This document shows, piece after piece, positions 4,411 through 57,917 of a stretch of DNA of 58,656 nt. Below the pieces are notes generated by a model. It saw only the letters and a list, made by a program, of their open reading frames with translations, was not told the origin of the DNA and searched no databases. A program made the translations under genes and the position numbers. Every line of letters begins with the position of its first letter. The first letter of the stretch is position 1. Source of the DNA: a virus (taxonomy: Duplodnaviria > Caudoviricetes); IMG/VR virus record IMGVR_UViG_3300033475_000026, positions 1 to 58,656 of that record. One strand, given 5' to 3'.

Positions 4411-4985
4411 AATCAACGAGTTGGAGCGCGTCTGTGGGACAGTCCGCGCTCCGGGTCTCGATCGCTGATTAAGGCTAGTGCAGTAAATACTGTACCGGCC
4501 AGGAGGTCAAGACCTTTGATGTGTCCTCACGAGTTTGCGGCCTCTCCCAAAGGGCCGAAACAAAAAGCTGCCGCTCTGGTGAGCCCATTCCATCGGCAGG
4601 CCTTCGGGTGCGGGCATACCCCGCAATCGGTGATGAACACAGGCGCGCGTCATTGGATGACGACCGACCGCGCGTTTTGTGGGAGCGGCCTTGAAAACGC
4701 TCCGGCGACGATTTCGGGGACAACGAAATCGGCCCCATTTCGGGGGAAGGGGACTGAGTACGCGGGGTTTCGACCCTCTCCCTCGTCAGGAGCTTCGGAA
4801 GACCCGCGAAGGTCCTCTCCGAAGGCGGAAAGGGCGAAGCTATGGAGAAACGGAACATGAACTGTCTCGCCCCGCAAAGCCAATCGGAGATCGCAGCGTG
4901 AGAGATCAGGAAAGCCTTATGTCCTCCCAGGACCACACCCTCACCACCTTTGCTGCGCGGATCGCAAGCGATCTCTCCGGTCAAC
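4385..4985 (+). ncRNA. Large hairpin-dense non-coding element (candidate structured RNA and/or replication origin)
   Basis: More than a dozen back-to-back stems, e.g. GGAGCGCG/CGCGCTCC, GGCTAGTGCAGT/ACTGTACCGGCC, CTGCCG/CGGCAG, TGCGGG/CCCGCA, CGTCAT/ATGACG, GGAGCG/CGCTCC, CGATTTCG/CGAAATCG, CTTCGGA/TCCGAAG, GGGCGA/TCGCCC; no convincing ORF. Strand is inferred from the operon. Confidence 0.55.
4921..4934 (+). repeat. Cassette-end repeat, left type (GTCCTCCCAGGACC)
   Basis: Matches the reverse complement of GGTCCCGGGAGGAC with one mismatch. Confidence 0.55.
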
Positions 4986-5004
4986 AATTCCGAGGAACCG
5001 AGCA

Positions 5005-5199
5005 ATGACTATCAACATCGACCCATGCCCCTTCTGCGGCGGCGAAGCATCCATCGTCAGCACCTTTGACCGCGACGACGTGCAGCAGTTCTACGGCAAC
5101 TGCGAGACATGCGACGCCTACGGGCCATCCGGCCTGACCGAGAGCGAGGGCGTCGACAAATGGAACCGCAGGGTCTCCGACGCTGGGGAGCAGCGATGA
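5005..5199 (+). CDS. Lar-family restriction alleviation protein
   Basis: PCPFCGG...CETC...KWNRR. Confidence 0.8.
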   Translation: MTINIDPCPFCGGEASIVSTFDRDDVQQFYGNCETCDAYGPSGLTESEGVDKWNRRVSDAGEQR

Positions 5200-5429
5200 G
5201 TAGATCCAAGGCGATATTTTTCCTCGGCTCCAACGCAACGATTTCGCACTGCTACGCATACGCGATGCCAAGTTTCGGGGGCCCGCAGAAGCATCCCTAT
5301 GTGAGCGGTGTCTTCATATGCCCGAACGACCTTAGTTTGTGGTGGCGGATCAAGGCGGCTTGGCGGCTTATTTTCATGGTTCCTGAAGAACTTAGGAAAA
5401 GAGCCGCGTCCAGCGGAGAGCAGCATTGA
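5196..5429 (+). CDS. Hypothetical protein
   Basis: ATGA overlap, GGAG RBS. Confidence 0.55.
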   Translation: MSRSKAIFFLGSNATISHCYAYAMPSFGGPQKHPYVSGVFICPNDLSLWWRIKAAWRLIFMVPEELRKRAASSGEQH

Positions 5430-5472
5430 GATCAGACCCCACAGCCCCAGCCCTGAAGGAGGGCGAGCAGCC

Positions 5473-5961
5473 GTGAAATACTATCTCGACACTGAGTTTG
5501 ACGGTCACGGCGGCCCGCTGCTTAGCCTCGCGTTGGTCAGCGAGGATGGGTTGGGTTGCCATTACCGCACTGGCGTCCGCGCCATGGACCTATGGGTCAT
5601 CCGCAATGTGGAGCCCCTGATGGACCAGCATGACGCGGATATCTGGGCGACGTTGCGCGGGCCGAACTACATGGGCAGTGCGATCCGGGAGTTCATCGAG
5701 CGCTCCAGCCTCGGAGGCGACGAAGAGCATACGATCATCGCGGACAGCCCCGTGGATATCGGCAGATTCTGCGAAGCGCTGTCAACCGGAGATGATGGCG
5801 TCTGGATCTCGACCGAATACCCGCACATGACGTTCGAGGTTCACAACGTCGCCTGCTACCCGACTACGCTCCCCGGCGCTGTCCAGCACAACGCATGGTG
5901 GGACGCCATGGCCCTGCGACACCTCCTGACCACCCCGAAGGAGGCCGTGAACCATGGCTGA
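5473..5961 (+). CDS. DEDDh 3'-5' exoribonuclease (Rv2179c-like)
   Basis: YYLDTEF...LLSLALV...D...HNAWWDA. Confidence 0.8.
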   Translation: MKYYLDTEFDGHGGPLLSLALVSEDGLGCHYRTGVRAMDLWVIRNVEPLMDQHDADIWATLRGPNYMGSAIREFIERSSLGGDEEHTIIADSPVDIGRFCEALSTGDDGVWISTEYPHMTFEVHNVACYPTTLPGAVQHNAWWDAMALRHLLTTPKEAVNHG

Positions 5962-6151
5962 GACCCACGAAACCTGCATCGCCTGCGAGGTCGCGTTCAA
6001 GGCCGGAGACGAGTTCCTGCCCGACATCGGCGGCGGGTTCATCCACATGGACTGCTGCGGCCCGGAGCCGGAGAGCCTCGTTGACCTGGAGACGGGCGAA
6101 CCGCTGGCGGAGAAGCCGGAGCCGCTGATCTGGGAAGCTGACCATGGCTGA
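5954..6151 (+). CDS. Small Cys/His zinc-finger-like protein
   Basis: CIAC...HMDC; flanked by a 16-bp direct repeat ACCATGGCTGAGACCC (5951, 6141). Confidence 0.65.
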   Translation: MAETHETCIACEVAFKAGDEFLPDIGGGFIHMDCCGPEPESLVDLETGEPLAEKPEPLIWEADHG

Positions 6152-6241
6152 GACCCCGAACCCCCCTCAGATCCCCCCGGCCCTAGCCCAGCTAAAACGG
6201 GTAGAGGCAAGCCATAAGCGAGAAGCCCGAAAGGCGAGGAA

Positions 6242-6439
6242 ATGATCGAGCAGGACAGGGGTTCATCCCGGGACCAGAACGACGGTTCAGCGAGTGGACG
6301 TGGTGCAGTAGCCCACGCCATCCCAGACGCCGAGCATGTTGAGCCGCGTTGGCGCTGCGCCCGTTGTGGACGAGACGAAATCGACTGTCGGCAGAATGGT
6401 TGCTCGCGGGGTCCGTGTCCTATGGATTTTGTTGGATGA
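6242..6439 (+). CDS. Small Cys-rich protein; N-terminus encoded by the cassette repeat
   Basis: GAGGA RBS; CARC...C...C...CPM. Confidence 0.6.
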   Translation: MIEQDRGSSRDQNDGSASGRGAVAHAIPDAEHVEPRWRCARCGRDEIDCRQNGCSRGPCPMDFVG

Positions 6440-6792
6440 GCGACCGCACCAACCGTCTCCTTCACGAGCTTGCTGCGTCCATTCGGGAGGATGTCGGCGC
6501 GCTGCCGAGCAATGTCCGGACGCTTGGCGCTGAAATCAAGGCGGCGCGGGATAGCGCGCGGATGAGTCTGCAAGAAGTCGCGGACGTCGCTGGGTTCACC
6601 AAATCCCACGTCTGGGAAGTCGAGCAGGGTCGATCCAGAAATCCTACTGTGGCGATGATCGCGGGTCTATCCAGGGCGCTCGGGGTGCCGTTCTTGCGGC
6701 TCGCTCAGGCCGCTCTCAACACTGCCTTGGCCGATGGCGAGGGTAGGGTTCCCTCGTCCACCACAGAGGCCAGCCAAGTCCCCGGGAGGACC
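6260..6792. mobile_element. Candidate accessory cassette bounded by inverted repeats GGTTCATCCCGGGACC / GTCCCCGGGAGGACC
   Basis: Inverted repeat pair at 6260-6275 and 6778-6792 enclosing two genes. Confidence 0.55.
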
Positions 6793-6801
6793 AATAAATG
6801 A
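6436..6801 (+). CDS. XRE-family HTH transcriptional regulator
   Basis: IKAARDSARMSLQEVADVAGFTKSHVWEVEQGRSRNPT. Confidence 0.85.
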   Translation: MSDRTNRLLHELAASIREDVGALPSNVRTLGAEIKAARDSARMSLQEVADVAGFTKSHVWEVEQGRSRNPTVAMIAGLSRALGVPFLRLAQAALNTALADGEGRVPSSTTEASQVPGRTNK

Positions 6802-7079
6802 CCCCCCCAACTTCACCAATCGAAGCCATGGCTAGGGCTATGCGCGCAGTGGACTTGAACGTCTGGCGTGAAGATTCAGTCCTGCGAACAGTGCTTAGCC
6901 AAGATGGCGCCGACAAACTCGCCAAAGCCGCCCTCCGGGCCCTCCTAGACCATCCCCTACCGGAAGAGGTGATAGATGCTGGACGTGGAGACTTCGATTG
7001 GGGACCAAGCCGGGACGACGAGCCGACACCACACCTCGTCTTCACTGCCATGATCCGCAAGATGCTGGAGACCGCATGA
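6798..7079 (+). CDS. Hypothetical protein
   Basis: IEAMARAM...AKAALRAL...P.EEVIDAG...FTAMI pattern; coupled starts. Confidence 0.7.
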   Translation: MTPPTSPIEAMARAMRAVDLNVWREDSVLRTVLSQDGADKLAKAALRALLDHPLPEEVIDAGRGDFDWGPSRDDEPTPHLVFTAMIRKMLETA

Positions 7080-7333
7080 CCCAGCCCTTCCAGATCACCC
7101 CCCAAACCCGCGCCAAGCCCTTCTGGACCTGGCCTGAATGGCTTCGCATCGCCAACGTCGAAGGCAAGGTCTGGGCCACGAACCGGGACCACAGCGACGG
7201 GACCGACAACCTCATCATCCAGACCCGACACGGAGAGCAGACCGTGGAGATCGGAGACTGGATCGTCCAGGGCGAGGACGGGGAGCTTGGGGTGCTGGTG
7301 GAGGCCGAAGCCAAGCTGGGTGCTGGAGGATGA
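7076..7333 (+). CDS. Hypothetical protein
   Basis: LIIQTRHGEQTVEIGDWIVQGEDGE resembles PGDYG-type phage proteins. Confidence 0.7.
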   Translation: MTQPFQITPQTRAKPFWTWPEWLRIANVEGKVWATNRDHSDGTDNLIIQTRHGEQTVEIGDWIVQGEDGELGVLVEAEAKLGAGG

Positions 7334-7524
7334 TCCCCACCACTCGCAACCTTCAGACGGACCAGCCGCTCGGCGACGACTACGAAGCCAGACCCGTCGT
7401 CAACTGCATCGAGTGCCTGGATACGGGCGCCAGGCCATTGCCCCATTCCGACGAAGCGACAGAGACCTGTGACTGCCCAGCCGGCGATCGGCTGCACCTC
7501 CTACGGACCCAACGAACCGCTTGA
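7330..7524 (+). CDS. Small zinc-finger protein
   Basis: CIECLDTG...CDCPAG; GGAGG RBS. Confidence 0.65.
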   Translation: MIPTTRNLQTDQPLGDDYEARPVVNCIECLDTGARPLPHSDEATETCDCPAGDRLHLLRTQRTA

Positions 7525-7569
7525 TAAAAGCCCCGCTTCCGTCATAATCCTACCGGTTCAGTAGGGATT
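7521..7569 (+). promoter_or_regulatory. Late promoter (TTGATA...CATAAT) with overlapping operator TAATCCTAC-N7-GTAGGGATT
   Basis: sigma70-like boxes; palindrome repeated at 11284, 16604, 25216 and 33447. Confidence 0.65.
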
Positions 7570-8107
7570 GGCGTTCATGACCACGACGGGTATCCACGGC
7601 GCAGTCGCAGTTGGCGACCCAGACGCCCCCAGTCATGTGATCAAGCCCAATGCTGACGGCTCGGTGAACATCGTCGGCGGCGCTGGAGACGGCGGCCCGG
7701 TCAGTGTCGCGGATGGAGCTGACGTCGCCTTGGGCGCCAAGGCTGACGCGGCAGTATTCAGCCCAGCGGCGACGGCCACCCTGATCTCGCTGTTCAAGGG
7801 CCTGCTTAGCCTCGTCAACGGCGAATACGAGACCGTCGCGGCTAGCCAGACTGCGCAGGTCCTTGGGGCCACGGGCGCGACCGGAGACTATCTGTCCGGC
7901 ATTCTGGTTATCCCCGCCACCACATCGCCTGGCGAGGTGACGCTTCTCGACAACGCGACGAGCATTCCGGTTTTCGTTGGGGGCGCGACCTCTGTTTCCA
8001 CCCTGATCCCGTTCTTCGTTCAGATCGGCGCCAAATCCACCTCTGGCGCCTGGAAGTTGACGACTGGCACGAACGTGTCGGCCATCGGCATCGGAAACTT
8101 CACCTGA
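7568..8107 (+). CDS. Putative virion structural/adaptor protein (start may be ATG 7578)
   Basis: Ala/Gly/Thr-rich beta-type sequence; first gene after the late promoter. Confidence 0.6.
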   Translation: MAFMTTTGIHGAVAVGDPDAPSHVIKPNADGSVNIVGGAGDGGPVSVADGADVALGAKADAAVFSPAATATLISLFKGLLSLVNGEYETVAASQTAQVLGATGATGDYLSGILVIPATTSPGEVTLLDNATSIPVFVGGATSVSTLIPFFVQIGAKSTSGAWKLTTGTNVSAIGIGNFT

Positions 8108-8760
8108 TGGCTCTCTTCCGCGGTCAATCGTCGTCCGTGGCCGCAGCGTTAAGCCCGGGGGGCGGGGGACCTCCTCCAGCCGGCCTGCTGTTCGACGCCA
8201 ACTTCCAGACGGGGACGTATGAGGTGGCGGGATCACCGGCCACAGTAGCAGACATCCTTTCCGAGAACACGAACTGGGGCTCATGGAACCCCGCGACGGA
8301 TATTGATTCCAATGGAATTGTGTTCGACCCCGGAGTTGGCCCGGTGCTTGCGGCAGCCTTCTTCACCACTGCATCAACGGCTGGCATCACCCTAACCGGC
8401 GCCATCACCCTTGGCGCTCAGACCGATTCCGGCGTGCTATGGGAGATGAACGACGACCCCACCTACACCGCGGAAAATGCAGGGGAAATCCAAACGGATG
8501 CCCTAACCATAGTTGATTACGTCGGGTCTGACACCGCATCTGGTCCTGGGTCGGGAACTTTCAACTACGCCCTCAACATGGCCCCCGACCGGATCGCCAT
8601 GAGTGTCAACGGTAGCGGTGTGTTGGCGCGAGACGTTCCTGCTGTGACCTTCACCCTCTTGGGCCTCTACCCGGCGTCCGAAAGCGTGGCCTACCTAGTG
8701 TCCATAGCAGGCCGCGCCCTCGTCGCCGAATCCGAACTCCCGACGCTGAGCACGCCCTGA
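8107..8760 (+). CDS. Putative receptor-binding or lectin-like virion protein
   Basis: Short N-terminal peptide, GGGGPPP linker, then a beta-rich domain. Confidence 0.5.
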   Translation: MALFRGQSSSVAAALSPGGGGPPPAGLLFDANFQTGTYEVAGSPATVADILSENTNWGSWNPATDIDSNGIVFDPGVGPVLAAAFFTTASTAGITLTGAITLGAQTDSGVLWEMNDDPTYTAENAGEIQTDALTIVDYVGSDTASGPGSGTFNYALNMAPDRIAMSVNGSGVLARDVPAVTFTLLGLYPASESVAYLVSIAGRALVAESELPTLSTP

Positions 8761-8761
8761 C

Positions 8762-9046
8762 GTGCCTATCCCCGCCACCCATCTCATCCCCCACACCAAC
8801 ACGGACGGCTGGACTGATCTGGGTCCGGTGGATCTCGGTACGGCTGAGATCACGGGGAACCTTCCAACCGCGAACCTCAACAGCGGAACCGGAGCGAGCG
8901 ACACCACCTTCTGGCGCGGAGATGGGACCTGGGCGACACCCGCTGGGGGCGGAGTCTCCTATGTGCCCCTGTCGCTCGGCATCGAACCGCTGACCTTCGT
9001 CTCTGACGGGTTCGGACAACCCATCTTCATCTCGTACACTCCATGA
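8762..9046 (+). CDS. Short fibre adaptor protein
   Basis: SGTGASDTTFWRGDGTWATP fibre motif; C-terminus paralogous to that of 28352-29059. Confidence 0.65.
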   Translation: MPIPATHLIPHTNTDGWTDLGPVDLGTAEITGNLPTANLNSGTGASDTTFWRGDGTWATPAGGGVSYVPLSLGIEPLTFVSDGFGQPIFISYTP

Positions 9047-11950: not shown

Positions 11951-11954
11951 GCCG

Positions 11955-46276: not shown

Positions 46277-46318
46277 AACCGTCAGACTCCGTCGAAAACC
46301 CCAGGCGTTCCGGGGCGT

Positions 46319-46333: not shown

Positions 46334-46370
46334 AGTTGGACGGCCGCCAGCAAAATCAAGGGCCACCATG

Positions 46371-46418: not shown

Positions 46419-46481
46419 TAACTCTTTGAAGTTATGGATTAATTTTCCGTCGAAAACGTATCGTCGCCGACCGTCCAACAT

Positions 46482-49108: not shown

Positions 49109-49263
49109 GGCAGAAGCCCTCCACTCGACCTGACGGCGGACAGCTCGTCTTCCTCGTCCTCTTCCAGATCGACACAGGTCGGGCAGAGGTCGTCGTCGAG
49201 GACACCGGCCGGGTGCTCTTCGCCGCATCGGCGGCAGGACACAAACTCTTCGGGCTCGCTCAT
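49105..49263 (-). CDS. Small zinc-finger protein with acidic tail
   Basis: CRRC...CPTC...EEDEEDE; coupled overlaps. Confidence 0.6.
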   Translation of the reverse strand: MSEPEEFVSCRRCGEEHPAGVLDDDLCPTCVDLEEDEEDELSAVRSSGGLLP

Positions 49264-49679
49264 TTCGTGGTCCTCCCTGGGCCTAGATCAGCACCTGTGG
49301 GGGTGGGGGTGGGACTGCCGAGGGCCTTAGCCATGGCCTCGCGGACCTCTTCACGGGTGACGGAGCCCAGCACCGAGAAGCACGGGTCGGTGCTCACGAA
49401 TTGCAGCACCCTGAGCAGTTCGGGCGCAGCCGCAATCAAGCGGGCGTTGGCGACCCCTTCGGCGTGGTCGAACGCTTCATCTTCAAGCCGAGTCACCACG
49501 ATGGCGAAGTCCGACCAGTTAGCGCCTGACACGCCAGTCCAGCCGGGCGGCATTTGCTCCCCGTTCACGAAGCAGGTGGCGGTTTCGAGATGCCACGGCC
49601 CCGGCGTATGCACACCCCTGGTGCGACGGGGGCCGATCAGTTCGACTGGACCCGGGAGGGACATATCTTCCTTGTTCAT
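49260..49679 (-). CDS. HTPGPW...LIAAAP-family phage protein; both ends encoded by cassette repeats
   Basis: HTPGPW, ANARLIAAAPELL. Confidence 0.75.
   Translation of the reverse strand: MNKEDMSLPGPVELIGPRRTRGVHTPGPWHLETATCFVNGEQMPPGWTGVSGANWSDFAIVVTRLEDEAFDHAEGVANARLIAAAPELLRVLQFVSTDPCFSVLGSVTREEVREAMAKALGSPTPTPTGADLGPGRTTK
49269..49662. mobile_element. Candidate cassette bounded by GGTCCTCCCTGGGCC / GGACCCGGGAGGGAC
   Basis: Inverted repeat pair inside the two ends of one gene. Confidence 0.5.
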
Positions 49680-49873
49680 GGGCCTTTATCCTGGGGCTGA
49701 TCGGAGGTGGAAAAGGCTCTGCGCTCTTTCATCCGCATGATGATCCGATCCAGAGCGGCGCGGGCGTCATAGTCGTCGTCCAGAAGCCACGCCTCGTAGG
49801 AGCCGATCGCCTCGTCCACGATGTCGGCGAACCTGCCGCGTTCCTGTTGATGGCGCACGTAAGGCTCACCCAC
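49676..49873 (-). CDS. Hypothetical protein
   Basis: GGAGG before GTG; coupled. Confidence 0.5.
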   Translation of the reverse strand: MGEPYVRHQQERGRFADIVDEAIGSYEAWLLDDDYDARAALDRIIMRMKERRAFSTSDQPQDKGP

Positions 49874-50084
49874 GGTCGACCTCCTTGAGCAGGGCGCGGC
49901 CGGCGTCGGTGATGCGCGTGAAAAGGCTTCTGCCTTCGGTGTGCGGATCGCAGACGAGGCCCATCCTGGCGAGCGACAGAACGAGCCGTTGCTCTTCCGC
50001 GCCCCGCACATAGAGGCCGTGGGGTCGAAGCGCGACCATGCCCAGCATGACGTGCTCTTCCTCAGTCAGCTTCACGCCGCTCAT
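49866..50084 (-). CDS. Small winged-helix-like protein
   Basis: SLARMGLV...ITDAGRALL. Confidence 0.65.
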   Translation of the reverse strand: MSGVKLTEEEHVMLGMVALRPHGLYVRGAEEQRLVLSLARMGLVCDPHTEGRSLFTRITDAGRALLKEVDRG

Positions 50085-50398
50085 CTGTCCTGCTCCTGGG
50101 GGATGGGGGAGAGGGCGGAGGCCGCGATCTTGTCGATGTCTTCGAGCGTCGACTTCGGGACCGTGGGCGAGCTGTGTTGAAGCTCGAACGCGACGTTCTG
50201 CCGGACGGCGACAAGCGCCTCTCCTCGCGCCCGATGGGAGGCGATCAGGAGGCGGAGGTCGGCGGCGTGCTGAATGGCCTCGGGATACCAGCCGGGCACC
50301 TTCTCGACGTGCCGCTCGATCTCGGTCGCGCGCTTCTCCAACCGCTCTACAGCGGCTTGAAGCTCTTCCCTGTCAGCCGGGATGGGGTAGGGGCTCAT
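50081..50398 (-). CDS. Hypothetical protein
   Basis: GAGGA RBS; coupled. Confidence 0.6.
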   Translation of the reverse strand: MSPYPIPADREELQAAVERLEKRATEIERHVEKVPGWYPEAIQHAADLRLLIASHRARGEALVAVRQNVAFELQHSSPTVPKSTLEDIDKIAASALSPIPQEQDR

Positions 50399-50802
50399 GC
50401 TGTCCTCGTGGGGATGAAGCGGCGGAACCCGCGCGACTGGATCTTTCGACCCTGAGGCCATTCGTTCCGTGATTTGAGGCTGGACACTGGGGCGCCCTCA
50501 GTCTCACGCTTGATGATCCGGTTGGCCTTGGCCTGGGCTTTACGGTCGGCCTTGGTCTTCGCCGCGTGACAGGAGGTGCACTTGCCCAGCCAATTTGAGG
50601 GCTCGTGCCTTCCGCCAATTGCACGGCTGATCACGTGATCGATTTCCCAGCGACCGGTCAGCGGCTCTTCACAGTCGGAGCACTGACCGGACTGGGCTTC
50701 GAACACAGCCCTGCGCTGGGCGGGCGTGAACGACTTCCGCGTCTCGATCTCAACGATGGCCTGGCGTAGCTCGGCGAGCTTGGTGGCAATGGGAGCTTTC
50801 AC
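50395..50802 (-). CDS. HNH endonuclease
   Basis: CSDC...EIDHVI....GG....N....C..CH..KT. Confidence 0.85.
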   Translation of the reverse strand: MKAPIATKLAELRQAIVEIETRKSFTPAQRRAVFEAQSGQCSDCEEPLTGRWEIDHVISRAIGGRHEPSNWLGKCTSCHAAKTKADRKAQAKANRIIKRETEGAPVSSLKSRNEWPQGRKIQSRGFRRFIPTRTA

Positions 50803-51623
50803 AGCAATCTCCCGAGAGATTGCATGTAGTCGATCGGGTCCTTGGCGTTCTTGCGGACATTGCAGGTCCGGCAGAGAAGCTGGATGTTCCGCGCCTCATG
50901 AAGGCCGCCCCTGGCGAGCGGAACCACGTGATCCATGTGGTAGCCATGCTTGAGGTTGATACGGCAGATTGCGCAGCGCCATCCTTGGGCTTCGCCGATC
51001 CGCGGAATGGTGCCCCACGGCAAGCGGCCAAGCTTGCGCCCCAGGCGACGCCGCGAGGATTCTCGGGATTTGTGCGGGTTGCGCTTCCGATATGCCCGCA
51101 ATCTGGCGGCGGACTTACCGCTATCGCGCAGCCGCGCCCTCTGGGCTTCGTAGCCGCCCTTCCATGAGGCGCTCTCAGGCCCCCGTGGTCGCCGGATAAG
51201 TCCGGCGGCTGACATCGCTCCCGTAATCTGCTTTGCCAGTGCTTTTGCCTCAGGACTGTTTAGCGCTTCCTGAGCCGCGCTGTTGCACGCTTGGCGGCAG
51301 AAGCGCCCCTGTCCTAAGCGGATTTGGCGTGGCCGCGGAATGAAGCTGGCGCCGCAGGTTTCGCAGTTCCGGCGCCGCGCTTCACGCTCTTCGGCGCGTG
51401 CGGCTGCGGTGCATCTAGGTCCGCAGCGCCGGTACATCCCAACCTTGGATTGGGGCAACCACATAGAGCGAAGACATACGTTGCAAGTCACGTGTACCTT
51501 CGTCTCATCCTCCACGAACCTCAGCTCGTACCAGGTGACCCGTTTTGTCGGCCGTGACGCGCTGGCGATCTCAGCCTTGGCGGCGGCGATGCGGTCTCTG
51601 CGTTCCTTGTCGAGCTGGATCAT
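50799..51623 (-). CDS. HNH endonuclease with N-terminal zinc fingers (homing type)
   Basis: CETCG..F......GRFC...C; CAIC...HMDHVVPLARGG.H...NIQLLC..CN..K. Confidence 0.85.
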   Translation of the reverse strand: MIQLDKERRDRIAAAKAEIASASRPTKRVTWYELRFVEDETKVHVTCNVCLRSMWLPQSKVGMYRRCGPRCTAAARAEEREARRRNCETCGASFIPRPRQIRLGQGRFCRQACNSAAQEALNSPEAKALAKQITGAMSAAGLIRRPRGPESASWKGGYEAQRARLRDSGKSAARLRAYRKRNPHKSRESSRRRLGRKLGRLPWGTIPRIGEAQGWRCAICRINLKHGYHMDHVVPLARGGLHEARNIQLLCRTCNVRKNAKDPIDYMQSLGRLL

Positions 51624-51844
51624 TTGAACGCATCCGGAAAGACCATCACGAAATAGGGGTCGGGCTCCTCGCCGCACTTGAAGGCGATCACGGCTTCGGC
51701 CAGGCCTTCCCCGAGCGATTGTTCGCGGGCTGGTCGCAGCTCGCGCGCGGCCTTCTTCCCGTGCTTCGCCTTGGCGTGCTGATAGCGGGCGTTCTCGTCG
51801 GCGAAGCTGGCGGTGCAGTGGGGGCAATGGACGTCGCGCATCAC
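51620..51844 (-). CDS. C2H2-like zinc-finger protein
   Basis: CPHC...F...NARYQHAKAKH. Confidence 0.7.
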   Translation of the reverse strand: MMRDVHCPHCTASFADENARYQHAKAKHGKKAARELRPAREQSLGEGLAEAVIAFKCGEEPDPYFVMVFPDAFK

Positions 51845-51993
51845 TTGGCCCCTCTGCGGATCGACGCAAACAAGGCCTGCATTCGGTTGCGCTGACAGGT
51901 CGGACAGCCTCCCGGATAGCGCATCGCGTCATAGTTCGTGCCGCAACTCAGGCACTTCGACTTGCGACCCTTTGATTGCTGGCGCTTTCCCAT
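51841..51993 (-). CDS. Small zinc-ribbon protein
   Basis: Translated by hand: MGKRQQ...CLSCG...CPTC...GAK*. Confidence 0.5.
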   Translation of the reverse strand: MGKRQQSKGRKSKCLSCGTNYDAMRYPGGCPTCQRNRMQALFASIRRGAK

Positions 51994-51994
51994 G

Positions 51995-52552
51995 TCAGGC
52001 AGCTCGGACGGCGCTACGAACGCCGCCCGCTCCCTGCCCTGCCGATGAAAGCTGTTCGGGGCTGATCCCCAGCATATCGGAGATCAGTTCGAGGATAGCC
52101 CGCTTGGAGGCGTTGAAGTCCTTCCCGCCCATGGCCCGATAGGATTGCGACTTCGCCTCGCGCATGATCACAAACACGCCGCGCACGAACACCAGGCGGA
52201 AATCGTCCATCGCCCGGATCGCCGCGGCGACGCGGATCGCGGCGGCATTGGTCCCGGCGTCGATAACCGTCTCGTGGTAGTATCCGGCGTCGATCAGGGC
52301 GCGTTTGCGGAGGTGTTCGGGCGACGGATATTGGTCGGCGACCGACTCCGGCAGCGTCTTCCAGGCTTCCTTGATCCAGGCGAACTCGTGGCCATGGGTC
52401 TTGTCGGATCGCTGGGGCTCGATGCTCAGCCAATATGCGGCGCCACCCGTGAAGGTCTCGGCGGCGCGGCGGCGGAAGCGCGGAACGGCCGTCAGCGTCT
52501 CGGCTTCCGCGTCCCAGGTGAAAGCCATGGCGGCGGGGTTGTCGGTCATCAA
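51995..52552 (-). CDS. NinB/DUF1367-like recombination accessory protein
   Basis: RS...H...FA....AW..LPE...PSPEHLRK.ALI.AGY...AKSQS..AM. Confidence 0.65.
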   Translation of the reverse strand: MMTDNPAAMAFTWDAEAETLTAVPRFRRRAAETFTGGAAYWLSIEPQRSDKTHGHEFAWIKEAWKTLPESVADQYPSPEHLRKRALIDAGYYHETVIDAGTNAAAIRVAAAIRAMDDFRLVFVRGVFVIMREAKSQSYRAMGGKDFNASKRAILELISDMLGISPEQLSSAGQGAGGVRSAVRAA

Positions 52553-53307
52553 ACGACCCTCTGATCAGCATGGACGATGAAGCCCGGAATGGTGCGCTTG
52601 CCTTCGCGGACGTCGGTTTCCGCCAGCGACAGCAGGAATGCCTTCATCGCGTCGGGCTGGGTCTCGACGTAGTGGACGAGCGCCGCCTTGGGGCTCACCA
52701 GCTCGGGCCGGTAGTAGGTCCGCAGCGTGGTCGCCCGCGCTCCGCCCAAAGCCGCCGGCCGATCCTTCTCGGCGCGGGTCGCGGCGGCTTCCGCCTGGCG
52801 CGCGGCCTTGACCAGCGCCTCGGCATCTTCGCGCGCTTCCAGATCGGTCTCTGCGGCGGCTTCCAGGGCCTCCTGGGCGGCTTGGACTTTCGCCTCGGCC
52901 TCCTGACGCGCCAACTCCGCGGCGGCCTTCTTGGCGGCCTCTTGGGCCTGTAGCCACGGGGCGAGTGCCTTCTTGCAGGTGTCGACGGCCAGGTCCGCCC
53001 GTTCCAGCAACGGCTTCCACTTCGCCTGTACGGCCTTGGCCGCTTCATCGTGGGGCCGCTTCTCGTCCGAGCGGGCCCGGTCGGCATCCTTGGCGGCGGT
53101 GCGGATCAGATCCAGCAGCTTGGAGACCGCCTCGGCCTCACCCTCAGAGTTGACGCCCTCGCCGTCGAGGAAGTTCTTGGCCTCTGCGAACAGGTCGTTG
53201 ATGTGGGCCGCGAAGCCGTCGAGGGGGCTTTCCGAGGGTGGTTCGTTGTGACCGATCCCAGCGATGATCTGGGCGTCGGCGGCGAGTTCGGCGAGCGCGG
53301 CCATCAA
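52549..53307 (-). CDS. Recombination-module coiled-coil protein
   Basis: IGHNEPP...R..EK.P.......V.A.W...IPG; next to the annealing protein. Confidence 0.7.
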   Translation of the reverse strand: MMAALAELAADAQIIAGIGHNEPPSESPLDGFAAHINDLFAEAKNFLDGEGVNSEGEAEAVSKLLDLIRTAAKDADRARSDEKRPHDEAAKAVQAKWKPLLERADLAVDTCKKALAPWLQAQEAAKKAAAELARQEAEAKVQAAQEALEAAAETDLEAREDAEALVKAARQAEAAATRAEKDRPAALGGARATTLRTYYRPELVSPKAALVHYVETQPDAMKAFLLSLAETDVREGKRTIPGFIVHADQRVV

Positions 53308-54104
53308 GCGAACTCCGGCACGTTATCCGCGCCCAGGCCGAAGCCCTCGGCCTTCTCGGTCAGCCGCTCGAAGAGGGTCTTGTATAGCCCCTCGATCTCG
53401 GCCAGCCGCTCGGGGTCCCCCAGGTCCAGTTCGCCGCAAAGCTTGGAGCCCTTGGCGTAGGCCTTCCGCAGATCGTCAGCGGTCTTGCAGGAGCGCATGG
53501 CGCTTTCGAGGGTGTCGGCTCGCTGGCTGAGCGATAGCGTGGCGGTCGTGGTTGCTGGTGCCAGGCGCTTCTCGTCCTGCTTCGGCGCGTCGGCCTTGGT
53601 GGTGGACGCCGGGACGTTCTGGGCGGCGTCCTTGACCAGCAGGCCCTCCAGCTTCTTACGGTCGGCCGCGCTGATCTGCTCGCGCTCGTCCAGATCGACC
53701 CAGGGCGTCGGGAGGTGGTAGAGATACCGCCCGATCCCCCAGCGCACGGCGGCGCGCTTGAACGCGTCCGACAGCGCGCCCTTCTCGGCCTCGATGTCGC
53801 TGTCGCCGGCGCCGTCCGCCTTCGTGACCCAGCCGCGTCCTTCGACCCAGATGTCGATCTCACACACGGTCTTCTTGTCGACGTGCGGGTAGCGGTCCTG
53901 CCAGTTGTCGGGTCCGCACACCTCGTCCAGCCGGTCCATCACGTCGCGGGCGTCGATATAGGCGAGCACCTGACCCTTGGTGGCCTTGGCGTTGTTGTCT
54001 CCGGTCTCGCGTTGGCGCTTCTTCTTGTTGCTCACGCCCACGCGCCAGGACACTTGGTCAGGGCGGAACGGGGCGGCCAGGCGGGTGAACAGGTCGTCGC
54101 TCAT
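53304..54104 (-). CDS. Rad52/Sak-family single-strand annealing protein
   Basis: LAYIDAR.VMDRLDEVCG..NW...EAEKGALSDAFKRAAVRWGIGRYLY. Confidence 0.92.
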   Translation of the reverse strand: MSDDLFTRLAAPFRPDQVSWRVGVSNKKKRQRETGDNNAKATKGQVLAYIDARDVMDRLDEVCGPDNWQDRYPHVDKKTVCEIDIWVEGRGWVTKADGAGDSDIEAEKGALSDAFKRAAVRWGIGRYLYHLPTPWVDLDEREQISAADRKKLEGLLVKDAAQNVPASTTKADAPKQDEKRLAPATTTATLSLSQRADTLESAMRSCKTADDLRKAYAKGSKLCGELDLGDPERLAEIEGLYKTLFERLTEKAEGFGLGADNVPEFA

Positions 54105-54301
54105 GCCGCTTGCTCCTGCGGTTGATAGGCCTCAGCCATGGCCGCCGACAGTTCATCGGCCAGGCGCTTGGCGTCGGATTGGAAGTAGTCGGGCTGCTTG
54201 GCGTCCTTGCGGAAGATCGCCAGGAGCTGTTCGGCGGAGGGGCGCGGGAGGTAGGTCCCGCGATACTGGACCTCTCCGTGAAGGGCAGTGAAAATGGGCA
54301 T
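54101..54301 (-). CDS. Hypothetical protein
   Basis: AAGGGA RBS; ATGA coupling. Confidence 0.6.
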   Translation of the reverse strand: MPIFTALHGEVQYRGTYLPRPSAEQLLAIFRKDAKQPDYFQSDAKRLADELSAAMAEAYQPQEQAA

Positions 54302-54380
54302 TGCTCTGTCCCTTTCCAGTGAATTGCAGTATACATGTTGGCGCCTCTACGCGCCACGAAAGGTTATCGCGTGAGGAACA

Positions 54381-54575
54381 CTAAGACGACGCCACGAGCC
54401 TGATCTGAGGTCTGTAGATGCGATGCCGCGTAACTGTCGTCACGACCTCTTCCACCGACATACCGGGATAGGTCTCTGAATTTGCAGAGGCCCATTTCCT
54501 GGCGGCTTTTGGATCATCAAAGGTCTTGATGATGGCCCCAACTGAGGTAAGGGCGTGGTAGCTGGTGGAGATCAT
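54381..54575 (-). CDS. Hypothetical protein
   Basis: AGGAGG RBS. Confidence 0.6.
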   Translation of the reverse strand: MISTSYHALTSVGAIIKTFDDPKAARKWASANSETYPGMSVEEVVTTVTRHRIYRPQIRLVASS

Positions 54576-54576
54576 G

Positions 54577-54930
54577 TCAGGCCTCCTGTTTGGGTGGGGT
54601 TGCGGCCTTGAGCGTCGCGAGCTTGGCCGCGTAGGCGTCGCGCTCGGCCTCCATCTCGCGCAGACGGGCGGCCATCTGCTTGGCGTAGCGCTTGGTCGGG
54701 ATCGCCTCGTTGCGCCCGTTCGGCGTCTGCCAGTCGTGGTAGCTGGCGGCCTTGTCCAAGCCGAAGATGCCAGCCTCGGCGATGTCGTCGGTGTAGCCGC
54801 AGGCGCCGCCGTCATGGCCGCGCCGATGCCAGCGGCCCCAGTAGTGCGAGCGGATCAGCCAGGGGCCTTCGGTTGGGTCCACGGGACGACGGCGCGGCGG
54901 CTTCCGGCGCTTGGCGACAGCTTCGCTCAC
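54577..54930 (-). CDS. Phage hypothetical protein
   Basis: WLIRS..WGRWHR.....CGYT..IAEAG. Confidence 0.7.
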   Translation of the reverse strand: MSEAVAKRRKPPRRRPVDPTEGPWLIRSHYWGRWHRRGHDGGACGYTDDIAEAGIFGLDKAASYHDWQTPNGRNEAIPTKRYAKQMAARLREMEAERDAYAAKLATLKAATPPKQEA

Positions 54931-55015
54931 AGCCGATCCCCCTTCGGCCCGAAGGCTTCAGAAAGGGCAGAGCCGAACATCAGGATCAGCAGGGCCAGGA
55001 GGGCGGATTGGAGGA

Positions 55016-55345
55016 TCATTGCGGGGCTCCGGTTTCAGGGGGCGTCCCGGGGACTTCATCGGCGTCGGCGGGGCTCGCAGCGTCGGCGCCGAAGTCGCGA
55101 TTGGGACCGCCGCGCGCCCGCAACTCGTCGAGCGTCACGGTCGTCGAGTTGGCGATCATGCGTTCGAGTACGGTGAGGTGCTCGCGGCGGAAGCGGCGCT
55201 TGTGGTAGGCTCGAAACTCCTTGGCGAGCGCCAGCGCTTCGTCGCGATCGGGGCCTTTGTGCAGGGCATCCGCCATGCCTTCGCGGTCCTGAATGGCGAA
55301 GATCAGGGCGAGTTCGATAAGTTCGGAAACCGGCCGCTTAGCCAT
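55016..55345 (-). CDS. Hypothetical protein; C-terminus encoded by the cassette repeat
   Basis: Ends ASPADADEVPGTPPETGAPQ. Confidence 0.65.
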   Translation of the reverse strand: MAKRPVSELIELALIFAIQDREGMADALHKGPDRDEALALAKEFRAYHKRRFRREHLTVLERMIANSTTVTLDELRARGGPNRDFGADAASPADADEVPGTPPETGAPQ

Positions 55346-55740
55346 CAGGCCACCTCGTCAGTCGGGGGTTCAGGTTGAAACGGCTCCAGCACCGCCAGCG
55401 CCGCCAGCCGCGCGATCCGGGCGTGGAAATGGGCGACGTTCGAAGCGTCGTCGGGCAGAGACTCGAGATGTACGATGGCGCGCGCGACTTCCCGCCGATC
55501 AGTGCAGTACCCACACCCGTCCACACCCCGCCCGAAGGCGAAGAGCGCACGACGGCCGACCCGCTCGCACTCAGGGCTGAGACGGTTGAGGGCGTAGACG
55601 TGCTCGGCGAAGCGGCTGGCAGGCTCGTTGGGACGGATCGGGGTCGCGAACGAGGTCGGGCTTTCGGCCGGGAATGGCTGGGCCTGGCGGACGTCTCGCG
55701 CGAAGGACGGCTTGAGCGGAAGGTTGACGACTTCACCCAT
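55345..55740 (-). CDS. Hypothetical protein
   Basis: MGEVVNL start; TGATG coupling. Confidence 0.6.
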   Translation of the reverse strand: MGEVVNLPLKPSFARDVRQAQPFPAESPTSFATPIRPNEPASRFAEHVYALNRLSPECERVGRRALFAFGRGVDGCGYCTDRREVARAIVHLESLPDDASNVAHFHARIARLAALAVLEPFQPEPPTDEVA

Positions 55741-55742
55741 GG

Positions 55743-55928
55743 TCAGGCCGTCTTCGATACGGAGACGGTGATCAGGGTCGCGTGGCCCTGGAAGGTGACC
55801 TGATAGTCGAACTTCCAGACGCCGCTCTCCTCGCGGCCGGTGCCGGGGATGCGCTTGAACTCGACGTCGCGATGGTGGACGTCTCGATCCGACAGCGTGC
55901 CGTCGATATAGCGGGCAAGGTCTTCCAT
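55743..55928 (-). CDS. Hypothetical protein
   Basis: AAAGGG RBS; plausible small beta protein. Confidence 0.55.
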   Translation of the reverse strand: MEDLARYIDGTLSDRDVHHRDVEFKRIPGTGREESGVWKFDYQVTFQGHATLITVSVSKTA

Positions 55929-56031
55929 CAGAGGCCCTTTCTTTCGTCTTGGAACGGATGGATGGGGGCAGCGCTCTTGGGCGCGCCGTAACGCTTTCCC
56001 GGGAGGCAACCTATTGATCTTGCTGCCATAG

Positions 56032-56382
56032 TCAGGCCTCCCCGCGAGCGAGGGCGGCGAGTGTGCTGTACGCTGCTTCGGCTGCACGTCTGGCAGCGGC
56101 CCAACCACGCGGCATCATTCGCGAGCATTGATCAAGTTCGCCCGCAGCCTTCCTCAACGCCTCCCTAAGCACTAGGGACGGGTCATCGGAGAGGATGGCG
56201 TCGGCCTTAGCGAGGGACGGCGCTGTCAGGTCGATGGCTTGGTCGCGGTATTGGGTTCCGAGACGCGACGCGGGGCCTTCGATATTGAACCATTCCGCCG
56301 AGCGTTCGGCGTAGTGGTCGTGCGCAGCCCACGCATCGGGATCAATGATCCTGGCGGCCCTCGTTAGGGTCTGGGAGGTCAT
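56032..56382 (-). CDS. Hypothetical protein
   Basis: ARIIDP.AW...SLAKADAIL. Confidence 0.65.
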   Translation of the reverse strand: MTSQTLTRAARIIDPDAWAAHDHYAERSAEWFNIEGPASRLGTQYRDQAIDLTAPSLAKADAILSDDPSLVLREALRKAAGELDQCSRMMPRGWAAARRAAEAAYSTLAALARGEA

Positions 56383-56600
56383 TTGCGGTTCCCCTCAAAG
56401 GCCCCGTACCGCGCCACTTCGGCGCTCAAGAAACCGCTGATGCGGTCCATGCGGGCGACGTTGCAGGGCAGGCACCATGGCCCCCAGGCTGTAATGCAGC
56501 CGAGCGTGCCGCACCCGATGCAGCGCACCCGCGGCCGGACCCGATTTCCGGGATGCTGCGGGTCGGCATATGGACGTTCTGCGTCTTGCTGCTGGCTCAT
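56379..56600 (-). CDS. Small Cys-rich protein
   Basis: CIGC...C.TAWGPWC.PCN..R..RI. Confidence 0.65.
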   Translation of the reverse strand: MSQQQDAERPYADPQHPGNRVRPRVRCIGCGTLGCITAWGPWCLPCNVARMDRISGFLSAEVARYGAFEGNRK

Positions 56601-57022
56601 TCCCCACCCCCTCTTGCAAGAAGGAGGGCGGCTCGGGCGAGCTTGACGTTGTGCTTCGCCTCGGGTTCGCCAAGGTTATTGATCCGCGCGTAGTCGCAGA
56701 CCTCTTCGACCAGCGCCTCCAACGCTTCGTAGAGGGCTGGAGACGCGGCGAGCTTCTGGTTCGCGATGGCCAACTGGACCGATAGCCAGCGGATACGCTC
56801 CTTGGCCGCCGTCTGCATCGGCAGGAGGTCCAGGCTGTAGCGGTCGACCAAATAGACGGCGTTCGCCATGGCCAGATCGGGCTTGTCGCCGTGCGTCAGG
56901 TCCGCGCGCCTCATGGTGGCATACTCGACGGCCTTCTCGCGACCTTCCGGCGTGGTCCAGTGGCCGGGGAGCACATCGGGGAGCCCAGCCGTCCAAGGCT
57001 TAAGGGAGGGGGCTTGGGTCAT
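56597..57022 (-). CDS. Hypothetical protein
   Basis: TAAKERIRWLSVQL...LAASPALYEAL. Confidence 0.65.
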   Translation of the reverse strand: MTQAPSLKPWTAGLPDVLPGHWTTPEGREKAVEYATMRRADLTHGDKPDLAMANAVYLVDRYSLDLLPMQTAAKERIRWLSVQLAIANQKLAASPALYEALEALVEEVCDYARINNLGEPEAKHNVKLARAALLLARGGGE

Positions 57023-57303
57023 TGGGCGGAGGCCTTTTCGTTCATCCCGGGACCTGTCCCGTTCGCTCCGGCGGGGCTCGCGGTTGCGGCGTCCAGGGCC
57101 GCGATGGCCTCCATCACACCCGCCCACGCATGGGCATGAGCTTGGCGGTGCCATTGCGGGCGCTTCTTCGCGTTGGACTCGGCGAAATGGCGCTCGGCGA
57201 TGGGCATCAGGATTTGACGGTGATCTACTCCCCCATCGGCGCGATGTGCGTTGGTCGACGGTGCGTGGTCCCGGGAGGCCATCACCCCGTCCTCCCCCGA
57301 CAA
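57019..57303 (-). CDS. Hypothetical protein; both ends encoded by cassette repeats
   Basis: Begins MASRDHA and ends TGPGMNEKASAQ. Confidence 0.6.
   Translation of the reverse strand: MSGEDGVMASRDHAPSTNAHRADGGVDHRQILMPIAERHFAESNAKKRPQWHRQAHAHAWAGVMEAIAALDAATASPAGANGTGPGMNEKASAQ
57040..57280. mobile_element. Candidate cassette bounded by GTTCATCCCGGGACC / GGTCCCGGGAGGCC
   Basis: Left 15-mer identical to 6261-6275; right 16-mer GCGTGGTCCCGGGAGG identical to 57838-57853. Confidence 0.6.
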
Positions 57304-57500
57304 GCCCTCTTGAAAGCCGCGTCGATATCCGAGAACGCAGGCTCCAGAAGGTCGTGGGCTGAGTACAGCTTGCCCCGCAGTTCAGCCGGAACCCGAAGGC
57401 CCGTTCGGAAGTCGACGCCATCACCCACACGGGCTCGGACAAGGTCCGTCGCTATGGCGAGGTGCTGGGCGAGGGCGGCTTGGGTGGTATCTAGGGGCAT
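57282..57500 (-). CDS. Hypothetical protein
   Basis: ORF in the operon. Confidence 0.55.
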   Translation of the reverse strand: MPLDTTQAALAQHLAIATDLVRARVGDGVDFRTGLRVPAELRGKLYSAHDLLEPAFSDIDAAFKRACRGRTG

Positions 57501-57503
57501 GGG

Positions 57504-57917
57504 TTAGGCTTCCGTCGCTTTGGCGATGGCGGCGGTAAGCGCTTCATGGCGCCGCGCCATTTCTTCGCCGATGGCTTCGAAGTCGTAGACAAGCCCTTCG
57601 CCGTCATGGGCGTTGTAGTTGTCTAGGATCGCGCAAAGCTCGCGGGCCTCGTGAAGCAGGTCCGGCGCGGCGGCGATCAGGCGCCCATGTTCGGCCGTGA
57701 AGGCATAGGCGACAGGAGCGCCGCTATCGGCCGTGCGAATGTCGAACTGGGATTGGATGCCATCGAGATAGTCGGGCTCGCCGCTGTCGTTCAGAAACCA
57801 CGCTCCCTCATCGGCGCGAGCCCCGCTGTCCGTGTGGGCGTGGTCCCGGGAGGACCCCATCCCACCATCCGGTGACAGAACACCGGAGGAACCATGATCT
57901 TCAGATTGCGGGGTCAT
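57504..57917 (-). CDS. LIAAAP-family phage protein; N-terminus encoded by the cassette repeat
   Basis: GAGGA RBS; SSRDHAH...RLIAAAPDLL...AAIAKAT. Confidence 0.7.
   Translation of the reverse strand: MTPQSEDHGSSGVLSPDGGMGSSRDHAHTDSGARADEGAWFLNDSGEPDYLDGIQSQFDIRTADSGAPVAYAFTAEHGRLIAAAPDLLHEARELCAILDNYNAHDGEGLVYDFEAIGEEMARRHEALTAAIAKATEA
57809..57856. repeat. Cassette-end repeat, right type
   Basis: CATCGGCGCGA...GCGTGGTCCCGGGAGG with the same spacing as 57234-57278. Confidence 0.7.

Follow-up and report, generated by a model that had tools for sequence, protein, structure and literature searches.

What are the short words built around CCCGGG with which several small genes of a temperate phage (Duplodnaviria; Caudoviricetes; record IMGVR_UViG_3300033475_000026) begin or end? 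The stretch analyzed here (the window) is the entire phage genome, 58,656 bases with a GC content of about 64%. In the original prediction the words were regarded as inverted repeats which bracket accessory genes as cassettes and are acted on in trans by a system of gene capture and shuffling. The answer favored in the present study, tentatively and with a probability of roughly 45%, is a different one: the words would be conserved gene-end blocks which are reshuffled by ordinary phage recombination, and neither the arms of mobile elements nor parts of a machine capturing cassettes.

All sequences quoted in the original prediction were recovered at their positions, including the boxes of GCGGGGCTCGC at 55068, 57071 and, inverted, 57816 and the word CATCGGCGCGA at 57234 and 57809, as were the terminal peptides SSRDQ, ASRDH, SSRDH, VPGRTNK, GPGRTTK, GPGMNEK and VPGTPPE. 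At up to one mismatch the motif TCCTCCCGGGACC occurs at five sites (4922+, 6263+, 57042+, 57267- and 57842-) against 0.20 expected, and none of 100 shuffles reached five; these copies are solid. At up to two mismatches eight sites stand against 4.27 expected and seven of 100 shuffles reached eight, the three sites gained (6778-, 49271+ and 49648-) being ordinary in number, and at up to three mismatches the count (31 vs. 41.9 expected) is that of the background. Matches to the motif are weak at 55041, 55995 and 57289, and the copy at 57289 represents the ribosome-binding site of gene 57019-57282 read in reverse. The 11-mer GCGGGGCTCGC is present in three copies, with 0.15 expected under a third-order and 0.29 under a first-order Markov model. 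As had been claimed, the copies are confined to variable early/accessory DNA (about 43.4-58.5 kb plus 1-7.5 kb), where all eight with up to two mismatches were found. All eight lie no more than 21 nt from a start codon, by gene calls that are our own crude ones with two starts added by hand, compared with 11% of random accessory 13-mers and 0 of 20,000 random sets of eight.

The left and right types of the original prediction are heads and tails on genes of either strand (Table 1), and its observation that the words mark gene ends was confirmed. The head block reads ATG-x-TCC CGG GAC CAC (‘SRDH’); in the window ATG is followed by 0-2 codons (seven in gene 6242) and TCC (TCC) CGG GAC CAC/CAG, which gives the peptides MSSQDH (4920), GSSRDQ (6260), MASRDH (57282; continued as MASRDHAPS) and MGSSRDH (57860). 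The better copies (four to five) are situated 0-21 nt downstream of ATG and are translated. Tails occur in two forms. The first, CCCGGGAGGACC-N7-ATGA (6781, 49275), reads …CCC GGG AGG ACC, and its GGGAGGA, 7-8 nt before the ATGA overlap start, provides the gene that overlaps downstream with its ribosome-binding site (gene 6798-7079 at the former, ORF 49105-49263 at the latter position). The second, CCCGGGATGAAC, reads …CCC GGG ATG AAC… (57046) or …CCC GGG ACG CC… (55046). The head at 4920 opens a 29-codon ORF, which extends into the beginning of the Lar-like gene at 5005. Beyond its core the copy at 49648 shows no likeness to other copies (all pair scores at most 12.5) and may be a chance match.

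Table 1. Coordinates of blocks, block-bearing genes and further genes of the window.
Feature	Position	Strand	Remarks
RusA Holliday-junction resolvase	2372..2743	+	PF05866
Head copy	4920..4946	+	MSSQDH, ATG TCC TCC CAG GAC CAC; core 4922-4934, CCCAGG for CCCGGG; 1 mismatch
Lar-like restriction-alleviation gene	5005-5199		
Head-type copy GGTTCATCCCGGGACC	6260..6275	+	codons 7-11 (GSSRD) of ORF 6242-6439
Tail copy GTCCCCGGGAGGACC-N7-ATGA	6777..6801	+	C-terminus VPGRTNK of HTH gene 6436-6801; 2 mismatches
Integrase	46482-47666		tyrosine recombinase (PF00589, 31 bits); only one in the genome
TnpB, RNA-guided endonuclease	47885-49108	-	NF040570, 199 bits
PF27050/phrog_1273 paralogue	49260..49679	-	family profile = residues 24-121
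Tail copy	49260..49283	-	GGCCCAGGGAGGACC-N7-ATGA in coding direction; C-terminus GPGRTTK of 49260-49679
Head-like copy ATG TCC CTC CCG GGT CC	49648..49664	-	other reading frame; 2 mismatches
Two HNH / endonuclease VII-like genes	50395-50802 and 50799-51932	-	
General recombination module	51995..54104	-	NinB/Orf-like 51995-52549 (phrog_319), exonuclease 52549-53304 (phrog_10477), Erf/Rad52-like 53304-54104
Diverged tail copy (…ASPADADEVPGTPPETGAPQ, stop)	55016..55105	-	end of gene 55016-55345
Weak copy GCCTCCCGGGAAA	55995..56007	-	3 mismatches; inside doubtful 33-codon ORF; probably chance
ORFan, 87 codons	57019..57282	-	head MASRDH (57267-57279); inverted tail copy GPGMNEKASAQ, stop (57040-57054), plus box at 57071
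75-nt direct duplicate	57228..57302	-	71% identical to 57803-57877; 22 nt upstream of ATG, core (positions 24-36), about 15 next codons
PF27050/phrog_1273 gene	57504..57917	-	native family of the SRDH head
Head of PF27050 gene	57803..57877	-	core 57842-57854, 0 mismatches

When 186 gene-start and gene-end segments were compared all against all, the block family contributed 6-7 of the 40 best pairs, mainly in direct orientation: the starts 57282/57860 and 4920/57860 paired with scores of 31 and 19, the ends 6801/49260 and 55016/57019 with 20 and 19-20, and the sole inverted pair among these 40 scored 17.5. The inverted look stems largely from the palindromic core TCCCGGGA and from the opposition of GGAGG and CCTCC. 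Inverted bracketing stands for some genes only, the best pairs of the family being mainly direct. Core spacing differs among copies (CCCGGG, CCCCGGG, CCCTGGG, CCCAGG). The 75-nt duplicate carries the core at its middle, and homology of about 90 nt, including the GCGGGGCTCGC box, connects the tail of 55016-55345, which holds the weak copy at 55041, to that of 57019-57282, which holds the copy at 57042, as far as the CAATGA stop/start overlap; homology thus runs through the core.

At this point an explanation by chance and composition, in which look-alike words would arise from the GC richness of the genome, a palindromic hexamer and strong ribosome-binding sites, can be weighed. It accounts for the background counts at two and three mismatches and for the copies at 49648 and 55995, which resemble others only in the core. 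It is also in line with TCCCGGGAC, found 26 times at up to one mismatch against 29.8 expected, and with a ranking of k-mers which holds other words equally enriched. The genome contains 34 pairs of repeated exact 15-mers, and the 15-nt match of 6261 with 57040, singled out in the original prediction, is consequently nothing special. For the family as a whole such an explanation is nevertheless hardly credible, considering the excess at one mismatch, the position of all eight copies next to starts, the share of so small a family in the top junction pairs and the distant phage genome G007, in which four exact copies of the core word TCCCGGGACC lie in the same context, as opposed to none in some 0.6 Mb of loci chosen without regard to the word.

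Within a group of GC-rich temperate phages, early genes of PF27050/phrog_1273 carry the SRDH head as their native N-terminus. The reading frame 57504-57860 matches phrog_1273 over residues 18-116, and the first and last residues of both paralogues in the window lie outside the profile. A wide protein search returned 18 relatives, 16 of them tagged PF27050. Three relatives, proteins of other sources, have matching end peptides: P0004 starts with MGSSQDLSPS and ends with SGMNPEKGSGQ, P0009 ends with GSGMNPK, and P0011 starts with MASRDLSPS. The same head also opens ORFs outside the family, namely 57019-57282, 4920-5008 and 6242-6439 in the window, a 92-aa gene of G007, a lipoprotein-like gene of contig L144 and a gene of contig L176, which places the block on PF27050 genes plus at least five unrelated ORFs. 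The statement that unrelated proteins received stereotyped ends is hence true of these ORFs, but 57504-57860 and 49260-49679 are paralogues. For the 87-codon ORF 57019-57282 a protein search matched nothing except the ORF itself, and it is unlike the PF27050 profile; its interpretation as a frameshifted PF27050 gene found no support. A search with the PF27050 alignment in viral contigs gave four loci, none with blocks. The literature searched, supplements being outside its scope, contained nothing on the block, PF27050, phrog_1273 or the family motif.

A scan of other phages showed that the blocks recur in distant contigs (G007, L144 and L176), with like peptides on P0004, P0009 and P0011. G007 is a complete phage of 43.2 kb, whose portal and capsid proteins are only 32% and 26% identical to those of the window. 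Its copies of TCCCGGGACC are all sense and lie within the first 15 codons or so, three of them with ATG 2-4 codons upstream, and belong to two adjacent PF27050 genes, the unrelated 92-aa gene (MKSSSRDHATT…) and a 39-codon frame. The two PF27050 genes start with MASRDLSPS… and MNTESRDHAPS… and both then continue with HTPGPW…LIAAAPELL. Window and G007 together hold eight exact copies, seven of which are on the sense strand 2-22 codons past the start. Over 20-22 nt the heads of the two phages are identical, and their flanks are reassorted: the head at 57282 shares its left flank ATGGCC with the G007 copy at 29027 and its right flank ACGCACCGTCGA with that at 29664, and the head at 57860 shares its right flank ACGCCCACACGG with the G007 copy at 36995, while its left flank is different.

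Elsewhere in viral contigs the words are found in mixed company. For TCCTCCCGGGACCAC, 17 loci were obtained, four of which are tRNA 3' ends and three (L004, L006, L009) antisense copies forming a gene tail plus ribosome-binding site; GTTCATCCCGGGACC gave seven loci, one in head context. The 74 rows for TCCCGGGACCACGC (about 64 distinct) include seven with an in-frame ATG at most eight codons upstream and at least 40 codons after the word, and L006 among these is probably antisense to a real gene. The tail word TTCCCGGGATGAAC stands in tail context in three of 73 distinct matches, and only L176 has the head too; judged by these matches it is not a general gene tail. In L144, a 1.2-kb island (4200-5400) with 55-70% GC, in a contig otherwise of about 42-46% GC, holds the lipoprotein-like gene (4524-4940) plus neighbors and has the look of a module taken over from a GC-rich phage.

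The recurring peptides could be the selected feature themselves, if N-terminal S-R-D-H-A-P-S and C-terminal V-P-G-M-N-x-K were tags which target or destabilize early proteins, and the likeness in DNA merely followed from peptide and codon bias. Capsid-targeting leaders on unrelated internal proteins of phage T4 would be a precedent, the S-R-D frame is kept in seven of the eight exact copies, and alike peptides occur on P0004, P0009 and P0011. Yet reverse complementarity over 10-15 nt is not what two independent tags would lead one to expect, and in L004, L006 and L185 the same 18-21 nt run antisense, as gene tail plus ribosome-binding site. At 49648 the frame is a different one, and a search with the first 40 residues matched no protein other than the query. 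We regard peptide tags as very improbable.

The nearest relative of the phage, G001, comprises 57,270 bp. Collinear with the window, it has structural proteins which are typically about 60-90% identical, while its accessory DNA is nearly all replaced. It contains no copy of the head word within two mismatches and a single degenerate one, GGTTCATCCCAGGGC, at the left edge of an 85-nt patch; this patch (6260-6344 vs. the reverse complement of 37053-37137 in G001) is 86% identical, with 39 nt at 100%, and its left edge in the window is the copy at 6260. In place of gene 57019-57282, G001 has different DNA of about 650 bp; the flanks on both sides are conserved, and neither border has a block. Altogether, six short accessory patches are common to both genomes, and four of the six are situated at a stop/start junction (7047-7075, 56036-56061, 56597-56636 and 56985-57029). 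Window gene 56597-57022 (141 aa) and its counterpart in the same position of G001 (reverse complement of 28305-28503, 66 aa) have unrelated middles and agree in no more than their 13 N-terminal (MTQAxSxKPWTAG) and 12 C-terminal residues (RAALLLARGGGE). This pair and the junction patches indicate that interior replacement between conserved ends occurs without a CCCGGG block. Two conserved patches used as queries turned up only in G001.

From these results a course of events can be proposed. The head block, composed of ribosome-binding site, ATG, 0-4 codons and TCC CGG GAC CAC GC, translated as S-R-D-H-A, would have been inherited from PF27050 genes, and some tails would also serve the following gene, coupled in translation, as its ribosome-binding site. 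No longer stretches than these blocks are common to unrelated small early genes, from which we infer that the blocks are sites of homologous exchange, that is, patches of homology at which general recombination may exchange, duplicate or replace gene interiors and leave unrelated proteins with stereotyped first and last residues. No dedicated recombinase would be needed: the enzymes proposed are the Erf/Rad52-like annealing protein, the exonuclease, NinB/Orf, RusA and the HNH/endonuclease VII-like proteins, all of which are encoded in the genome. The annealing protein was identified as Erf/Rad52 by PF04098 (9e-20) and phrog_1097. Conservation at the nucleotide level might, as a guess, be due to a role in translation start and coupling such as has been proposed for the start-associated sequences of Cluster K mycobacteriophages. 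Rad52-like enzymes together with orf and rap are reported to build mosaics from diverged short homologies (PMC3945230).

Several points weigh against this scheme. The comparison with close genomes comprises one moderately close relative, G001. Gene starts are our own calls, and for two of these genes the source record gives another start; its protein of 137 aa starts at 57917, which puts the block at 57803-57877 at codons 20-26. Heads of window and G007 share their 20-22 nt, including the alanine codon GCA, which we take to be uncommon, in spite of the low identity of portal and capsid, and such strong conservation points to selection at the nucleotide level or to recent transfer. A role in translation receives no signal of RNA structure, since ten of ten junction folds were no better than shuffles (z -1.5 to +1.0). 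At least four genes combine a head with a reverse-complement copy of 10-15 nt in the tail: window 57019-57282, the 92-aa gene of G007 (…DPGMPT…), the 121-aa gene of L176 (…AVPGMNPK, stop) and the 138-aa lipoprotein-like gene of L144 (…AVPGTNKETDQ, stop; tail CCTGGG opposite head CCCGGG); P0004 fits this pattern by peptide only. Moreover, the head at 57856 has the 11-mer GCGGGGCTCGC 16-19 nt from its core, in common with the tails at 57042 and 55043 and inverted relative to them. Homologous recombination alone does not predict head–tail inversion. Heads without a tail partner are found in both PF27050 genes of G007, in window ORF 4920 and in L151, and the inverted pairing is thus real for some genes, though not general. 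Head–tail inversion, nucleotide conservation over a distance and flank reassortment keep two other readings alive, a regulatory one and one that invokes a dedicated site.

In the regulatory reading the block is an operator read on RNA or DNA, and shuffling is secondary. It could be the site of a trans-acting factor at the translation start of an early gene set, comparable to start-associated sequences, and RegA-type translational operators offer a possible likeness; alternatively, the first and last codons of a cistron could pair over a long range and couple translation of the next gene. Sense orientation and position of seven of the eight exact TCCCGGGACC copies would fit this reading, as would an identity of 20-22 nt which persists between phages with structural proteins about 30% identical; no candidate binding protein was identified, however. 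Also in its favor are the complementarity of head and tail in four genes, the pair CCTGGG/CCCGGG of L144, which would be a G·U pair in RNA and a mismatch in DNA, the overlap of tail copies with the next ribosome-binding site and a predicted hairpin GGGGAGG/CCUCCC around the AUG at 56029. Against it, most head-bearing genes lack a tail partner, partner copies show no pair-specific compensatory changes, and the constant part TCCCGGGA is a palindrome which by itself permits no hairpin. RNA hairpins or sequestered ribosome-binding sites were rejected on the ten junction folds mentioned above, and a search for known RNA families (Rfam) gave no match at gathering score. We consider the regulatory reading as a whole rather unlikely.

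A dedicated system supplied in trans, in which an HNH enzyme, the tyrosine recombinase or a host enzyme cleaves or crosses over at the core and moves cassettes between phages, comes closest to the original prediction, and some of the evidence does tie the blocks to shuffling of genes: their sharing, their recurrence and the reassortment of left and right flanks around the invariant 10-nt core. Single genes of unrelated families are bracketed by inverted copies in four contigs, blocks occur in differing types of phages, including the GC-rich island in the L144 contig of about 45% GC, and two HNH genes and TnpB are encoded in the window. An invariant core would, however, concentrate homologous crossovers without any dedicated enzyme too, homology crosses the core in the intragenomic copies, the GC-rich island exceeds the bracketed gene and has its edges away from the blocks, and the tail word hardly ever stands in tail context. 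G001 has no copy within two mismatches and none bordering the replaced gene. Nor did a search for the enzymes lend support: IntI, invertase, Rci-like, DDE and HUH/TnpA proteins were absent from the approximately 50 ORFs scanned, a part of all ORFs, and the sole tyrosine recombinase matched the XerA/integron-integrase model weakly and below threshold (19.6 bits, cut-off 220). Just downstream of this integrase, positions 46383-46419 resemble the 3' part of a tRNA gene, with T-arm GTGAG-TTCGAAC-CTCAC, acceptor strand and ACCA, which is likely the attP core of the phage; the recombinase thus has its own adjacent site. No target-site duplication was present at the flanks of 57040-57282 and 6260-6792, as had been noted before. 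The absence of an adjacent transposase, which had also been noted, is incorrect as worded, as the TnpB gene is located about 150 bp from the copy at 49269; no TnpA was found. The dedicated part of the prediction is therefore not upheld, and we deem such a system improbable. Equally doubtful is the narrower version in which the TCCCGGGACC core would be a true site of crossover or cleavage, used in trans by, for instance, an HNH enzyme, so that early-gene interiors are swapped at sites inside coding sequence.

Other sources of the words were tried and dismissed. No repeat links 47600-47900 to the copies, as would be expected of a TnpB guide or end matching the motif. An origin from a tRNA or attP was rejected, ARAGORN having detected no tRNA gene and the window copies being not tRNA-like upstream of TCCTCCCGGGACCA, although some phage tRNAs (4 of 17 viral-contig matches) do end in TCCTCCCGGGACCA. 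Promoter/terminator cassettes were discarded as well: promoter-like sites numbered zero in 44000-58656 and one in 1-9000, away from the copies, and terminator-like sites were at background, with one hairpin (49654-49671) on the strand opposite the genes overlapping the copy at 49651. Restriction-site logic was dropped. CCCGGG is depleted genome-wide (15 sites vs. 44.5 expected, 8 of the 15 being block junction sites), which matches the depletion of most 6-bp palindromes and gives the blocks no mechanism. As an observation of its own, such palindromes are strongly avoided (GGATCC 0 vs. 20 expected, GAGCTC 0 vs. 13, CTCGAG 1 vs. 19, GCATGC 1 vs. 15), and G001 displays an identical pattern.

Among known arrangements, integron cassettes resemble the locus in that ORFs of unrelated function are bounded by short inverted cores. 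Integrons possess attC hairpins of 60-120 nt between genes, IntI and an attI/Pc arrangement; here no IntI was found in the scanned ORFs, no attC-like hairpin of 60-120 nt follows the ORFs, there is no attI/Pc arrangement, genes overlap by ATGA or TGATG without a spacer, and the blocks are translated. In pdif modules, shufflons and Gin/Hin segments, sites of alternating orientation bracket short modules, and shufflon and invertase sites can be coding, but the window differs by the absence of a dif-like 28-bp site and of Rci-, Xer-type or serine invertases among the scanned ORFs, and most head copies are partnerless. Inverted ends of 10-15 nt around 0.25-0.45 kb and a TnpB gene in the genome are reminiscent of miniature inverted-repeat transposable elements or insertion sequences, from which the locus is set apart by the missing target-site duplication, by the lack of TnpA/DDE proteins among the scanned ORFs and by homology extending outward past the ends. 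Ends of IS200/IS605 elements are hairpins on one strand and not inverted repeats of each other.

The closest described counterpart is the start-associated sequences (SAS/ESAS) of Cluster K mycobacteriophages. These 13-bp repeats contain a ribosome-binding site, stand 3-7 bp ahead of starts, are confined to non-structural genes from several families and number 11-19 per genome; their function is given as unknown (PMC3203893). Both are short repeats above chance, restricted to the non-structural part, tied to starts of different gene families and mostly in one orientation relative to the genes; in both, symmetric outer bases (GGG…CCC in SAS, GGTCC…GGACC here) enclose a Shine-Dalgarno core, and both are conserved within and between related phages, with G001 lacking them in our case. 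The differences are that here only tail copies are upstream of a start, the better conserved ones being downstream of ATG and translated, that copies are fewer (5-8), that some genes own an inverted 3' copy, and that the sequences are unrelated and the host group is another. Short conserved boundary sequences at module borders of temperate phages were proposed as substrates of homologous exchange (PMC3029335). Homology traces at borders of exchanged pieces (window vs. G001) agree with boundary sequences and with Rad52 mosaicism, and so does the set of genes, a Rad52-like annealing protein plus an orf-type mediator, as named in PMC3945230; RusA and the HNH/endonuclease VII-like enzymes could act as junction nuclease. 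In contrast to the boundary sequences so described, the conserved stretches here are inside ORFs, the exchanged unit is the gene interior, and one block is multi-copy and common to otherwise distant phages. The PeSLs of T4-type phages, intergenic early promoters plus terminator stem-loops, are likewise repeated small motifs which flank non-essential ORFs in hyperplastic regions, and recombination between copies leads to insertion, deletion or replacement (PMC2839356). In contrast to PeSLs, no block copy of the window has a promoter-like site.

Early regions of phages are rich in small orphan genes, whose gain and replacement are poorly understood. As recombination handles, the blocks would offer a concrete, testable way of replacing genes in frame with their expression signals preserved; as operators, they would mark out a set of early genes regulated together. 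In both cases they are a second example, from another host group, of start-associated repeats of the mycobacteriophage type and a practical marker for exchangeable genes of this phage group.

As to the remaining genome, genes point rightward as far as about 43.3 kb, those between 44.4 and 58.6 kb point leftward, and bases 1-127 are an exact repeat of 58530-58656 (terminal redundancy of 127 nt in the record). The portal is P22-like, with the best database phages at most 46% identical, and the early region also codes for HTH regulators. Near and distant DNA searches of the phage collection gave no match, relatives sought via the capsid protein in genome contigs were not confirmed, and a metagenome scan gave 80 loci, which have only the C-terminal half of protein 7577-8107 in common. 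The best matches of TnpB in the phage collection (Ralstonia and Salmonella phages) are at most 45% identical; a small Cys-rich ORF (49105-49263) and an excisionase-like ORF (47612-47824) lie on either side of TnpB, near the integrase, and a terminator-like hairpin (46416-46437) follows the tRNA-like attP.

The 85-nt patch shared with G001 lies in otherwise unrelated ORFs (65 aa vs. 211 aa), is far better conserved than the structural genes and contains the word GTGCAGTA. This word has six copies, with 0.28 expected, all on the plus strand (4478, 6303, 23067, 23757, 40566 and 55502). At 4478-4495 it is half of a near-palindromic 18-mer, GTGCAGTAAATACTGTAC, which is situated in the 500-nt intergenic region 4411-4919 and looks like an operator. 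Another pair of gene starts, of an unrelated DnaA-C-like HTH gene (3392-3418) and of erf (54093-54119), is alike over 27 nt at 89%, covering ribosome-binding site, spacer and ATG AGC GAC; other junction pairs score similarly, the junction sequences of this phage being alike in general. A second repeated word, GGAACCGGAGCG, is present in 5-7 copies at one mismatch (8885, 10129, 11504, 13931, 23244, 30764 and 39717); at 30739-30777 and 39692-39730, in structural genes, it is part of a 39-nt repeat with a perfect 11-bp hairpin stem, TCGGAACCGGA…TCCGGTTCCGA. Finally, three to four imperfect repeats of 75-119 nt (29246-30036; spacing 186-426 nt, mostly 240; 60-76% identity) inside the 528-aa gene 29056-30642 point to a structural protein with repeated domains.

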